Assembly: GCA_054600435.1 (NCBI GenBank) | Contig: BAAIJX010000039.1 | Location: 1-64,000 of the forward strand | Length of the DNA stretch: 64,000 bases | Origin: Neophaeotheca triangularis | Lineage: Eukaryota | Direction: 5' to 3' | Part shown: piece after piece, positions 37,440 through 43,990 of the stretch | How positions within the stretch are numbered: the stretch's first letter is position 1 | Layout: the number at the start of each line of letters is the position of its first letter | The notes under the pieces: generated by a model | What the model was told of the DNA's origin: nothing | Seen by the model: only the letters and a program-made list of their open reading frames with translations | The model's database searches: none | Translations under genes and position numbers: made by a program

Positions 37440-40178
37440 CTTTCAAACACTCGACCGCTGCATCGCGACCCAAGACTGTGCGCCGCCAGCACGTCGCGGG
37501 ACCCGAGGCCGCCGCCGCCGCCGCCGCCGCATCAACCTCCACCCAGGTCGCCCATACTCTAACCGCGTGTACTAGATGTAGAGCGGTGTGTAAGATGCAA
37601 CTATCGCGCACATTCGAATAAGCCTGCTGATTCGTCCGGCCAGCGCAAAACGAGATGCGATCCAGGACTCCCCCGCTGCAATCCGTGCGAACGAACAAAC
37701 TCTGTCTGCGAATACTTCGACTCTAACAAAGGCGGCAATGTGAATCGCAACTATGTCGTCTACCTACAGCACAGGCTGCGCGATTTGGAAGAGGAGCTGG
37801 CGCGAGTCGAAGGCGACGACTCGACCGAGGACGAAGAAGCCATGATGCGCTCGGCTGCGGTGCGAATGCAAGATGCGAAAGAGACAAAGTTCTTGGGTCC
37901 TTCGAGTGGAATCGCAATCACACGCCTCGTCATGCAGTTGGCGAAGCAATTCAACGACGCCAAGTCTATAAAGGATATAGTCTCGGAGGACAAAGCGCAA
38001 CAGATCAAGGAACTCTACAACCAAGAACAGGCCAAGCCGACATCAAAGGTCTATCCGCTCACCAGCGATGTCGCCGCTGATCAGTTGCCCAACCGCGCTC
38101 TCGGCGGCATGCTGCTCCACCTGTACAGGCTCAAGGTACAGCCCATGTACCCGGCACTCCATGAACCAACTCTCGACAAGGATTTTGAGGCGGCGTACAC
38201 GAATTGCCCAGCCGCGACTGCTTATCAGAACTTTGTCTGCCGCATGGTCATTGCCATCAGCCTCCAGAAGATGGACACCCAATACGCTGGCTTGGCGGAC
38301 AGCTACTACCTTGCGGCATTGACCTTCTTTCAAGAAGTGGTGAAACCGATGAACCTCCAAACGTTGCAGTGCTTTGCACTCATGGCTGAGTACTCGCTAT
38401 TGACTCCAACACGTACGGCCATTTATTACATTGTAGGATTGGCGGTCCGCCTGCTCCAAGCTCTCGGATACAATGAAGAAAAGACACTAAGTAAACCAGG
38501 CCCAGACGGCAGGATCGACGTCTTGGAGGTGGACATGCGAAGGCGGATTTTTTGGTGCATTCTCGTCATGGAATGTGGTTTGTCGCACTCGTTGGGCAGG
38601 CCTTGCATATTAGCAACGAATCAGGACCACATTGACGTGGGATGGTTCGAGACTTGCGACGACAAGTACATCACACCTGAAGGAATCGACCCTGCCGCCC
38701 ATAGACCGCTCCTCTCCAAATGGGTATCAATACATTTCTTCAAAATGAGACTCTTGCAACTTGAGATTCGAAGGAAGCTGTACCAAAAGAAAAGACCAGA
38801 GCCGAAGAACGACCAACATGAGTGGTTCATTCAGATGCAGGCCAAACTCTCCGCGTGGGTGGATGCATCTCCAAACCAAGACGAAGGTTCAGGTATCGAC
38901 AAGAGATGGTTCATCGGACGCTACAACACCATGGTCGTCTTCCTCTACCGGCCGTCTCCCCAAGTCCCTCGCCCCTCGCTGGACGCAGCACTAAAGTGTT
39001 ACGATGCTTGCGAATACAACATCTACATGCAGCGAGAGCAAATCACCAAACGCAATGTCGACCTGACTTGGATTTTCACACAGTCAATTTTCATGGCGAT
39101 CAACACCATGCTGTGGTCTTTAAGCTACGAAGAGGTCCGTCGGCGACATAGCAAGGACGAAGTGGGAAAGCACCTCGACGTAGCAATGGATGCAATACAG
39201 CTTGCTTCTGAGCGCTGGCCTGGTGTCGCTTCAGCAGTACAACTTTACCACAATCTGATCAACGCAGTCATGAAGATTTACGAGAAAGACGGCGACGTAC
39301 CGATATCAGCGGCTTCACCCTCGGATCAAGCTACTTCGCCGGCGCAGGTATTCTCAGATGGCACAAATCGCTCACGTGGCACTAGTCCGGCGACGGTAGC
39401 TAGTAGTCCCATCGCCACACCGCCCGAAACTCGCTACGGCTATGTCCAGCGAGGCTCCAGAGGTAGCGTGGAGCAGCCACCACCCGAGCCGTATCAAAGC
39501 AACACCCCACCACACCAAGCACAATCGTCATACCAACAGCAACAGCAACAACAGCAAACCATGCAAGCCATGCAAAACGCTCAAGAACCCCTCTCAAACC
39601 CTTACCAACAATACCAACAGCAATTTGTAAACTTCGACCCCTCGAGCTCCCTCAACCCCCTCCCGCAGTTCACACCGGAGCTTACCATGCCCGGCTGGAA
39701 CCCCGCCTTCGCCTCACACCAACCACCTTCCTACCATACCTATTCCCTCACCAATAATGCCCCGTCCTACCCCCAACCCTACCAACCCTACCCTCTCCCC
39801 CAATCCCAACCCCAACCCCACTCCTCAACATTCGACCCCACCCCTTACCCCTACCCAGACCCCCTCATCCCGACAAACCCCTCCCAACCCCAAACCCAAG
39901 ACAACATGCCCTCCCTCGACCAACAATTCCTACCGCTCCCGCAACTCTGGGGCCCCAGCGACACCCCCGATACAGCCATGTTCAACGACGCCCCGGGGCT
40001 GAATCAGTCGCAGCACGAGGAGCTCATGCTGGCGCTGGAGAATGAGGGCATGGAGGACATCCAAACGTTGATTACCGGGGCTGTAGACGCCATGGCTGCT
40101 GCCACTGGAAAAACGGGAGCGGTGCTGGGGCAGGGCAGTCAGGGAAGTCAGGTAGATTCGGGTGGGAGGGCGTATTAG
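37385..40178 (+). CDS. Zn(II)2Cys6 transcription factor with Fungal_trans domain (Ppr1/UaY-like group)
   Basis: ACTRCRA|RKTRCDPGLPRCNPCERTNSVC (intron 37586-37643), DMRRRIFWC..LSHSLGRP, Q/P-rich tail. Confidence 0.9.
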
Positions 40179-40872
40179 AGCCTTTCCTGGGGCGGGACAC
40201 TCGCGAGGTGTGGGTTATTGTTTTGTTGGTTCCAGGGTGGCTGGTTGCATTGCGGGATGGCGGTTTTGGATTTTGACGGCTGAGCTGGCGCTCAACAAAG
40301 CTGAGATGGGAGGGGAAAAATGGAAACGAAAAAAACGCGCACGCGGCTCGCTTTTAACGATGGAAATGACTTATGCTGGGCGGGCTGGGGGAGAACACGG
40401 TAGCTGCTACAGCCAGCTTTGGTCGGTGCTTTGGGTATGCGCTTATTATCATGCTGGACGATGGAGGGACTTTCTTGCTTGCGGATTGAACTGCTGGACG
40501 GTCATGTAGAGCGAGGAGTTGGAGGCGCTTCTTTTTACGACAATGGCAACTCTTGCCTGGCGAGGTGTTTGAGTGGCATTAGCTAGACTGAGTTAGTGGT
40601 AACGACGCTCCTTCTTCATGTCTCGACACTCTCTCTTCCGTTTTTTGCTCTACTGGTGCGTGCCGGCTTTTGTGTTAGTTGGTACCACAGAAAGAGATCA
40701 CGCCTGCTGCACGCTTTGGGCGAGCGGGACGAGAAGGTCAGGTCCTTCGCGGCAGGCACCACTGGTACTGAAAGCCAGACATAATGAGTGATTTCGTTTT
40801 GTCAATCTGTACTTTTTTCATACAAGCGGACGGCTGATCTAGGTAGGCGGATATCGTAACATCTATTCGACG

Positions 40873-40876
<4 letters not shown>

Positions 40877-40908
<32 letters not shown>
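40877..40908. repeat. (CT)n microsatellite, about 16 units
   Basis: Directly visible. Confidence 0.9.
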
Positions 40909-40911
<3 letters not shown>

Positions 40912-41378
40912 GCTCAAAGTACAGTCTTGTCGTAGCAGACTTTTTGCCGCCTTAAAGCTCAGCGACCAGAACCTTTCCGCAACTCGTCCCTTGCTCCTGC
41001 ACTTCTTTCGTGCAGGATATGTATAGCGTTAGATGGTGGTGGTGGTGGCGTCCGAGTCTTAGAAGACACATTCACGGCTGATATTCCGGCCGGCTTCTCT
41101 CGGTCTCTGTCTTTGTTTGATTTTCAGGTGTTGTGTCAGGGGGTATAAACAAATGCTCGCAATGCGTGAACGCTCAAATCGGGGGTATTCTTTTTGGTTT
41201 CGATTTTGTGGAAAACAGGAGAAACACGAATCGTTTGGAGGACGATCCGGAGAGAAACAGGACTTTTGCAGGTATTCCTGCGTGTTTAAGTGTGTCTTGA
41301 TGGTGTGTCCAAGAGTAGGTGTGGTGTGTAGTCGTGGTGTGGATCGGCGATGCGGAACAAGGCGGACGGAAGGTCGTG

Positions 41379-43266
41379 CTATGAGCTGCGCACACCCATC
41401 ATTTGGTTCGGACCATTTGCAGTGAAAGGAGGTGAATTTGCTACGCCATAGTCCTGCTTAGATGTTAGTGAGCGCTACTTCCCAACATAGGGGTCAAGCA
41501 TGCACTGCCGCAATGTCTCCAAAGGATTGTCCGAACTGCTTACATGGACAGAGCCAACAATGGTTTGATCGTTTAGCGCGAGGGATTTGAATCCCTCGAT
41601 AGCTATCCCGCTTTATCACATTGTTTCATTCAAGCTCGTCCTGCTCAGTCGATCCCTATTCGAGTCGTGCATGGTAGCCTGGAATCCGACCACTGACCTT
41701 TCGTTTCTGCCGCTTGCCGCCGCTGCTGGCTCTGTCGTCCATGCCGCCTGTACTATAGCCGTCGTCCTCGAAGCCCTCGTAGCCGGTATAGCTGCTGTCG
41801 TCGTAACGCCGCTTCTTGTTCTGCCGTTCGGGCCTCTGCAAGTTTCGTGGCGAAGCAGGTGCAGAGTTGCGACCGAAATTGGCAGGATGCGTCTTGCCCA
41901 TAGCTTTGCCGGCCACGGTTTTCGTTGGTGCGACCAATGGCGTGCCCTTCTTAGCGGCAGCCGGTTCGTCGAGGCCGAGCTCTCTGCTCCATTGATGGTC
42001 CTCTTGCTCCGGAAGCTTCCCCGGCGCAAACGACAGAGCAGCGTCCAGTCTTGCGAACAGCTGATCCTCCTGACCACTACCGAGCATGGTCTCTGCATGG
42101 GTCGCGGTCCACCATGTACCGCCGTCCTCAGTTGTGTTGTTCCATGCCGGATCTACAAGCCCCTCGAGCTCCGCTTTGCCTGCTTTAGCTTTGGGCTTCC
42201 CTTCTAGGCCTAGATTTTTGACCTTGCTCTCGTAAGACTTGCGTAGCTTGTTGATCTTCTCGCCGGTGACAGGGTCCTTGCGAGCGACGGATTGCTGGAT
42301 GTCCTGCAAAGAGTACATCTCCAAAAGATTGTCGGCAGGCTTCGGTTGTGACACCGGAACGTCTAGAGTAAAACGCATTTAGCAAAGGGAAGACAAGTAA
42401 GGCAAAGCAAAAGGGCCGCAAAACTTACGCTGCGTGCGGAGCAAGTGAAGCGCACACGCACCTGGTACAAGCTCCTGAGAAGCATCGCCTTCAGCAGTCG
42501 TATCCGTGGTGATCGGCTCGTGGTCTGTCTTTCTGCGCTTGGCTTCTTCAGACTTGGACGACTCGGCTTCGGTCTCGTCTCGCTCGCGTTTGCGGGAATT
42601 CATCTCCTCATGGCCAGGGAAGCCGTCTTTGCCATCTACAAAGGCGGTCTCCTCATCCGGCTTCTTAGGACTTGATGGCATGCTTGTCACGTTGTGGCTG
42701 GGCCTTGCTTCTCCTATGTCGTGGCTTGCATTCCCATGCTTCTCAGTTGAGGACATATATCCTTCAGTCTTCAGCTTTTTGGGTGGCGTTGCTGAATCAC
42801 CAGTCGAGGATTGCTGTCTTTCAGACAAACTTGTCGCATCTCCTTCCTCGCGCTTGCGCTTGAGGTGTTCCGCGTTTCCACCTTCCTTGGCATCACCAGA
42901 TGTCTGCCGCATCCTCTGCTGGGACCCTAACTCTACTTTGCGCGCCTCTGAATCGCTCTGCTCGACCTCTGTAGCTGGTGTGTTCTGCCCAGTGCGCAAA
43001 CTACCCTCGCTGCTTCCGGTCCTGCCCATTGGGGGATTTTGGCTCTCAAAAGGTGGGGTAGTGGAGGTATTGTTGCTAGCACCATTGCCTGCGCCTGTGA
43101 TTGAATGGTTCGAACTCCATGACGGAGACATGTGGACTGAGGGTGGTGGGGTTTGTGGTGCCTGGTTTCCTTTGAGGGAGTCCTTTGTTGTTGTGGTGAA
43201 GGGTGGAGATGCTGGGCTAAAGGATCGGCGCTGACGTTTTGGCGAAGCGTCACCAGATGAGGACAT
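41379..43266 (-). CDS. MED19: Mediator subunit Med19/Rox3
   Basis: PQTPPPS, then NLLEMYSL..VARKDPVTGEKINKLRKSYESKVKNLGLEG (Rox3-like domain) and a basic tail. Introns 42363-42428 and 41454-41697; the last exon reads DYGVANSP...MMGVRSS*. Confidence 0.8.
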
Positions 43267-43990
43267 GGGGTAGGTTGTGGCGGAGAAGAAGCTGTGGATG
43301 GCGAAGGTGTACAGATATGGGTGTAGGAATGGATACCGGGTTGTCGCAGGTGAAGCCCGGCTTCACTCCCGCGGCCAAGTCTTCGAGGGCGCTGTCTCAA
43401 GAGTGGAGCTGCCGTTGTCTCATTCGAGGTGTGAAATGTAAGTGTCCAGTTGGTACGGATGTGTTTCCGATCGTGGTCCGTCGTTGGTGATGGTCAGATT
43501 GGAAAAGTCGTACTGGCGGATTTGGTGAATGGGAAGGAGATCGGCGGTGGTGGTGGTGTTGAAGGTGAAGGTGTGGTGGTGTGGTGTCGATGATGGGCGG
43601 GCGGGCGGGCGTGCGTGCTAGCCTACCTTACCTTAGGTAGCCTAGCGGGCGCTGAGCGGATGTGGGTACCGTGGCTTAGTCATCGGTGCCTACTAGTAAC
43701 GTTAGAGGTAACCTGGAAGTTAAGGTACCTACCTACCTTACCTAGGTACACTCGGTACATAGTAGTACTCGACGAGCTTCCACTCACAGACCTCCTGATC
43801 CCAAGGTTATGACTGCAGGTGCCTTTTAGATTGTGTCTGCTGTCATTACTAGTATTGTTCGCAACAACAACCTGGAATCTCATAACAGCCACGTCTGGTT
43901 TGCTGTTTGCTGTTTGCTGGTAAAACGCGCCATAGCGACCATCACCGGCATTCTCACAGTACTTACCTTATGTGAAGCACACCACACAAC

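Follow-up and report, generated by a model that had tools for sequence, protein, structure and literature searches.

Work by Solnick from 1985 and later studies reportedly found that an exon looped into a hairpin is skipped. In introns of Saccharomyces cerevisiae, structure formed over decoy or cryptic splice sites is thought to favour use of the proper sites, according to the available part of PMC12350175. For the Capnodiales, introner-like elements have been described that have about twice the length of regular introns, carry a stable predicted structure or inverted repeats, and decay fast (PMC3609843 and PMC8469720, in the portions available). A different kind of variation is described for human MED19, in which the C-terminal part of an 'alternative' isoform is replaced by four unique residues; the isoforms were established at both the RNA and the protein level, and the accessible part of the source implicates no RNA structure (PMC10600210). 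For fungi, a full-text literature search returned no case of alternative splicing of Med19/Rox3 among the matches listed, which does not prove its absence from print.

The second intron of the fungal MED19 gene described here, located in a 64-kb stretch of DNA (the window), touches on all of these systems. As in skipped exons of the Solnick type, a segment bounded by an acceptor-like and a donor-like site lies wholly inside a stem-loop, and the gene encodes the same Mediator subunit as human MED19. The intron also resembles the introner-like elements of the Capnodiales and the symmetrical (stw)introns of the Hypoxylaceae, as far as the available descriptions go, in being unusually long and in containing an inverted repeat or stable hairpin, and its host belongs to the same taxonomic neighbourhood as the introner-like elements of PMC3609843, a source available in part.

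The MED19 Gene and Its Conserved C-Terminal Tail

The minus strand between positions 41379 and 43266 carries a gene of three exons, the coordinates of which are listed in Table 1. When joined, the exons amount to 1545 nt or 514 codons and form an open frame in which the sole stop is the terminal one; the frame of exon 1 starts with MSSSGDASPKRQRRSF, resembling the N-termini of the orthologues. The best protein matches were found in the Dothideomycetes, including Zymoseptoria, Zasmidium and Pseudocercospora, with an identity of 45-56%, and belong to the Mycosphaerellaceae and Teratosphaeriaceae. A preliminary description of this DNA had named the gene MED19, an identification that the Pfam Rox3 match supports; going by its sequence, the gene is a Med19/Rox3 of the Dothideomycete type.

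Table 1. Features of the MED19 locus, with positions in the 64-kb window.
Feature	Position	Strand	Remarks
MED19/Rox3 exon 1	42462..43266	-	Starts with the ATG at 43266; N-terminal part of low complexity; phase 1 at its 3' end
MED19 intron 1	42363..42461	-	99 nt, GTGCGT...CTAG; required for the open 514-codon model
MED19 exon 2, Rox3 domain	41698..42362	-	Pfam PF08633, E 1.5e-48; ends ...GGKRQKRK, phase 0
Exon segment complementary to the 3' arm of the hairpin	41728..41743	-	CATGGACGACAGAGCC; 13 bp with a 3-nt bulge; from an inverted-repeat search
MED19 intron 2	41454..41697	-	244 nt, GTCAGT ... ACTAAC ... CAG; removal fuses KRK to the conserved tail
Internal acceptor-like site CTGAGCAG	41641..41648	-	Lacks a well-placed branch site; paired with p 0.94-0.97 in 6/6 contexts
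Self-complementary segment (putative cassette exon of the preliminary description)	41544..41640	-	97 nt; in frame DELE and stop; -31.9 kcal/mol, z -3.98
Hairpin apex	41579..41598	-	8-bp stem CGAGGGAT/ATCCCTCG, UCAA loop; inverted repeat; p 0.97 in 6/6 contexts
Internal donor-like GTAAGC	41538..41543	-	3' foot of the hairpin; CAT/GTAAGC; mean paired probability 0.43-0.65
Branch-site consensus ACTAAC	41464..41469	-	Perfect; the branch A (41465) is 11 nt upstream of the distal junction
MED19 last exon	41379..41453	-	DYGVANSPPFTANGPNQMMGVRSS and TAG stop at 41379-41381

Of 21 residues compared in the tail encoded by the last exon, 14 are identical at the C-terminal end of P0001, the protein from Zymoseptoria brevis. 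The same conserved end is present in P0002, P0005, P0006, P0014 and P0020, and a terminus of the form ...NSP(A/S)F...GMVGVRSS followed by the stop recurs in the Med19 proteins of Zasmidium, Pseudocercospora, Polychaeton, Neohortaea and Aureobasidium. The 97-nt segment in the middle of the intron, by comparison, brings an in-frame TGA after four codons and has a length not divisible by 3. As the tail reached through the distal acceptor is conserved and the 97-nt segment breaks the frame, a productive mRNA must drop all of 41454-41697. The junction 41697>41454, to which the preliminary description had attributed full-length Med19, thus yields the conserved form of the tail.

The distal acceptor is itself a tandem NAGNAG (41454-41459 on the minus strand, TAAG/CAG/GAC). 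Splicing to the first AAG would insert a single glutamine (KRK-Q-DYG...); the orthologues match the CAG form.

Splice Signals in and around Intron 2

Fungal introns have CTRAY as the consensus of their branch site, and the consensus of the donor is CAG/GTAAGT. The outer donor of intron 2, AAG/GTCAGT with its G at 41697 on the minus strand, has an unusual C at +3; the distal acceptor, CACTAACATCTAAGCAG, ends at 41454 on the same strand. By a hand count, the two donors of the intron match this consensus about equally (8/9 and 7/9 positions), and on this count the internal GTAAGC is comparable in quality to the main donor. The ACTAAC lies 78 nt downstream of GTAAGC and is followed by the CAG, as judged by motif match only; since this combination would give an intron of 90 nt, a normal size, GTAAGC could credibly serve as an alternative donor or as a decoy, and is probably a decoy.

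The proximal acceptor is of a different quality. No CTRAY was found at the usual distance from it, the sole candidate being a CTGAG, the A of which is only 4 nt away from the junction, and the sequence upstream is purine-rich. For both reasons the first of the two sub-introns that the internal sites would define, 57 nt in length, looks weak. Translation through this acceptor reads GAC GAG CTT GAA TGA, that is, DELE and a stop at 41628-41626. The TGA is located 82 nt before the 3' end of the 97-nt segment (41544), which is beyond the ~50-nt criterion for a premature stop and agrees with the preliminary description, where the stop was put about 80 nt upstream of an intron. That description was accurate also in its other positions, as the donors at 41697 and 41543, the acceptors at 41641 and 41454, the TGA and the tail were all found where it had placed them.

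The Palindromic Core of Intron 2

Folding of the 97-nt segment by itself gave a single hairpin with an energy of -31.9 kcal/mol, composed of the helices AACAATG/CATTGTT, TGAT/ATCA and TAGC/GCTA and the 8-bp apex; its base takes in the acceptor G at 41641, which pairs with the C at 41546. The self-complementarity reported in the preliminary description was thus reproduced in silico together with the listed helices, and the hairpin proved more stable than its shuffled controls: none of 200 shuffles was equally stable (z -3.98), and a repeat with 100 shuffles gave a z of -3.57. Random 97-nt windows provided a second reference, in which 0 of 300 reached z <= -3.5 (the minimum being -3.49) and 5 of 300 reached z <= -3. 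The raw energy is ordinary, as 11% of 15,976 windows have -31.9 kcal/mol or less, 2% of them all as single hairpins; the G+C content is 55% in the 64-kb window and 45% in the hairpin segment.

Within its own intron the hairpin is only modestly special. When the best 90-nt hairpin per intron was compared, two of 50 shuffled introns equalled that of MED19, and the entire 244-nt intron had a z of only -1.79, with 5 of 100 shuffles equally stable. The claim that the segment pairs 'end to end' holds for the segment folded alone and fails in part when flanking sequence is included. The basal helix was formed with p 0.66-0.99 in four of six folding contexts and with p ~0 in the other two; it was in these two, where the folded sequence extended 60 or 100 nt into the upstream exon, that the basal and middle helices were lost. 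An outer helix, CATGCAC/GTGCATG (41667-41673/41499-41505), had a probability between 0.00 and 0.78 depending on the context.

The arrangement was compared with the zipper stems of yeast introns, as defined in the available part of PMC12350175. As in that definition, the hairpin (intron nt 57-152) precedes the branch A (nt 233). The linkers of the 97-nt hairpin, however, are ~126-136 nt, compared to 42-85 nt in the yeast definition (PMC12350175, same portion), and only the outer helix at 41667-41673/41499-41505 fits this range (~47-57 nt), although it is not robust. Zipper stems are moreover a feature of yeast introns, whereas the present fold is a computed one in a filamentous Dothideomycete, where introns are normally short. 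The path that links the 5' splice site with the branch point in the minimum free energy structure was also determined, for seven introns, each against shuffles. In the MED19 intron it measured 16, compared to 14.1 +/- 8.8 in the shuffles, of which 58 of 100 were as short; as shuffles bring the ends equally close, this measure has no power to detect a shortening of the intron.

A Probable Single Long Intron

The reading that we consider probable is that 41454-41697 is a single long intron, the palindromic core of which never enters the mRNA. Productive splicing would join the GTCAGT donor to the CAG behind ACTAAC and so produce the conserved C-terminal tail. The imperfect palindrome in mid-intron would meanwhile fold into a long stem-loop, in which the internal CAG that resembles an acceptor would be kept paired, along with a portion of the internal donor GTAAGC. 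Such a fold would loop out ~100 nt, so that the spliceosome would pair the outer sites over the decoys. The palindrome may have been selected for hiding the decoys, or it may be what is left of an insertion or expansion by which the intron became long. By analogy with the yeast introns treated in the available part of PMC12350175, the fold plausibly holds the decoy sites out of reach. Points against this reading are the unusual C at +3 of the main donor and the GTAAGC at the foot of the hairpin, which is only about half paired and could well be used, making a normal-sized fungal intron of 90 nt. If the hairpin does no more than sit in a long intron, the locus would be another example of a structured long fungal intron.

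The one RNA run found, X1 (0.08 of words), gave a single 229-nt contig over 40900-43500, which corresponded to 41740-41968 in exon 2 with 3 differences and no joints; as it ends short of intron 2, it has no bearing on the splicing. A motif-only census of introns in the window produced 15 short candidates, compared to 8 in reversed-sequence controls, and was too noisy to be used for splice-site statistics.

Two more elaborate arrangements were considered and rejected. A stwintron was discarded since, by eye, no internal intron restores an outer donor, branch site or acceptor; recursive splicing was discarded since no GT would arise where 41698 is joined to 41640.

The Intron Site in Related Loci

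A metagenome scan yielded 59 Med19 loci, 51 of which reach the C-terminus and were used for the intron table; L038, L039, L042, L050, L051, L055, L056 and L058 were excluded, their matches ending before query residue 118. An intron of 48-75 nt was found at exactly this phase-0 site in 23 of the 51 loci by script and, in addition, in L037 by eye. Long introns at this site were present in 6 of the 51 (L002, 230 nt; L014, 280 nt; L022 and L023, 488 nt; L028, 201 nt; L030, 208 nt), while L019 has one of ~98 nt, L001, L003 and L040 have none, and 17 of the 51 have a differing or unreadable C-terminal end. The intron site is old, since distant orthologues have an intron at the same phase-0 position after K(R/K)RK, and on the sequences compared it is the 244-nt length of intron 2, not its position, that is unusual. 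No sequence was shared between the intron in the window and the long MED19 introns of other lineages, or any of the 59 loci.

Hairpins in the long introns of the relatives were evaluated in a local test that left out L022. In the related loci L028 and L030, the long MED19 intron folds at its centre into a hairpin that was matched by 0 of 50 shuffled introns at either locus, and 3 of their 32 consensus pairs are changed on both sides with the pairing kept. In L002 and L014 the hairpin was unexceptional, being matched by 8 and 28 of 50 shuffled introns, respectively. A strong central hairpin is therefore predicted in two of the four lineages tested, and this is no general rule.

Further details were observed in these introns. 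In L028:1539-1739 (201 nt) and L030:1797-2004 (208 nt) a common long-range helix encloses the central hairpin, the inner arms of which differ in sequence. The 488-nt intron at L022:3187-3675, present also in L023, is the longest found here; it contains a short tandem run of GTACT and has a whole-intron z of +0.82. Two public gene models, P0004 (...KRQKRQVS) and P0008 (...KRKVSGF), run into the intron and therefore lack the last exon, which is conserved. The exon missing from P0004 was found on L002, behind the 230-nt intron (region L002:1526-1756). These cases are of practical value for annotation, as gene callers that enter such introns miss the last exon of MED19.

It is possible, if rather unlikely, that the intron, or the palindrome at its core, goes back to an introner-like or foldback element, since decayed, such as proliferate in the Capnodiales. 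The hairpin would then be a neutral relic without any part in the splicing of MED19, an origin that would be compatible with a single intron. The intron is indeed both longer than its counterparts (244 nt, compared to 48-75 nt in 23 loci) and structured (hairpin z -3.6 to -4.0), and the families of the best protein matches are those where such elements are described (PMC3609843 and PMC8469720, in the portions available). The loci of highest protein identity, L001 and L003, are intronless at this site, and the lack of common sequence among the long introns of different lineages also speaks for such an origin. On the other hand, introner-like elements and (stw)introns occur, in the available accounts, as many near-identical copies at new positions, while the MED19 intron is single in the window and occupies an old, shared position. 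Neither the intron nor the hairpin was found a second time in the 64-kb window, self-comparison of which gave 0 repeats, or in the 59 loci. Nor does the position appear newly gained, as distant orthologues share it, though L001, L003 and L040 are without the intron; the shared phase-0 site speaks for inheritance of the intron more than for its recent gain by insertion.

Alternative Use of the Splice Sites

The two donors leave room for a second possibility, namely that the hairpin, or its pairing with the exon segment 41728-41743, sets the choice between the outer donor (41697) and the internal one (41543). Use of the internal donor would retain 154 nt, and the protein would end in ...KRKVSGRIPGYHARLE and a stop, losing the conserved tail. 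The partner of the exon segment is 41543-41555, comprising the 3' arm of the hairpin and the G of the internal donor. In foldings that took in the upstream exon to a length of 60 or 100 nt, this stretch bound 41728-41743 (p 0.91 and 0.81, respectively) and displaced the basal stem of the hairpin. Two partners that exclude one another are thus open to the 3' arm, and the one it pairs with changes with the folding context. Mutually exclusive intron structure regulates yeast RPL7B, according to the available part of 10.1101/2025.03.14.643126. The signals themselves are also in keeping with a choice of donor, since GTAAGC, ACTAAC and CAG make up a textbook intron of 90 nt and the two donors differ little in their match to the consensus. 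The exon-intron pairing was, however, seen in only 2 of 6 contexts, with p falling to 0.17 and 0.00 in the longer ones. It was furthermore noticed post hoc; as it was spotted after the fact, its chance probability is too large for it to carry weight. We therefore regard a regulated choice between the two donors as improbable.

In its fullest form, such regulation would be a two-state RNA switch: with the 3' arm on the 5' arm, the internal sites would be hidden and full-length Med19 made, and with the 3' arm on 41728-41743 the alternative would be taken. This, too, is improbable. If true, the switch would set the balance between Med19 with the conserved tail and a tail-less or NMD-targeted form. 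A fold that steers the choice of splice sites would represent a rare instance, for a filamentous fungus, of splicing under the control of RNA structure, and a point at which a core subunit of Mediator is regulated after transcription.

The preliminary description had gone further and taken the 97-nt segment as a cassette exon, poisonous or truncating, which is skipped when the hairpin is formed, giving full-length Med19, and included when it is melted, giving a protein that ends in DELE. The geometry is suggestive: the flanking sub-introns of 57 and 90 nt are both of normal fungal size, the internal donor GTAAGC is consensus-like, the ends of the hairpin coincide with both internal sites, and the internal acceptor is paired in the predicted structures (p 0.94-0.97). 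Human MED19 likewise has a shorter C-terminal isoform, an analogy only (PMC10600210, in the available part). The exons of the Solnick type are, however, real ones with working splice sites, whereas the upstream acceptor in MED19 lacks a proper branch site. It is because of this, and of the purine-rich stretch preceding the acceptor, that a cassette exon looks very improbable, and neither the exon nor its control by folding is supported by the present analysis. To judge by its energy, the hairpin is in addition unlikely to melt in physiological conditions, and exon skipping is a rare splicing mode in fungi in the accessible part of the literature.

Structured Non-Coding RNA and Neighbouring Sequences

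The boxes that define snoRNAs are C (RUGAUGA) and D (CUGA), or H (ANANNA) and ACA. The long and fairly clean intronic stem-loop could in principle be the precursor of an intron-hosted microRNA-like or unrecognised snoRNA-like RNA, but this is extremely improbable: an Rfam search at E <= 10 over 40500-43500 gave nothing inside the intron, ARAGORN found no tRNA in it, inspection by eye revealed no box C with a box D in the right order and no correctly placed H or ACA box, and none of the 59 loci conserve the sequence. An intronic structured non-coding RNA had been the alternative offered by the preliminary description; as a known family, it found no match in the Rfam scan or the tRNA search.

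A point in favour of such a precursor is the hairpin apex, which appears to resemble a tRNA T-arm with one extra base, or a B-box. A tRNA or SINE origin of the apex was rejected, both ARAGORN and Rfam being negative.

Downstream of the gene, ~470 nt from the MED19 stop, lies a (GA)n microsatellite of ~18 units at about 40870-40912. The only Rfam match nearby, snoZ178 (E 5.7), is this low-complexity (GA)n run. Further on, a long open frame on the plus strand (37563-40178) has a Zn2Cys6-like N-terminus (CVRCN...CDPGLPRCNPCE), identified by eye; as it runs towards MED19, the pair would be convergent, their ends lying ~1.2 kb apart.
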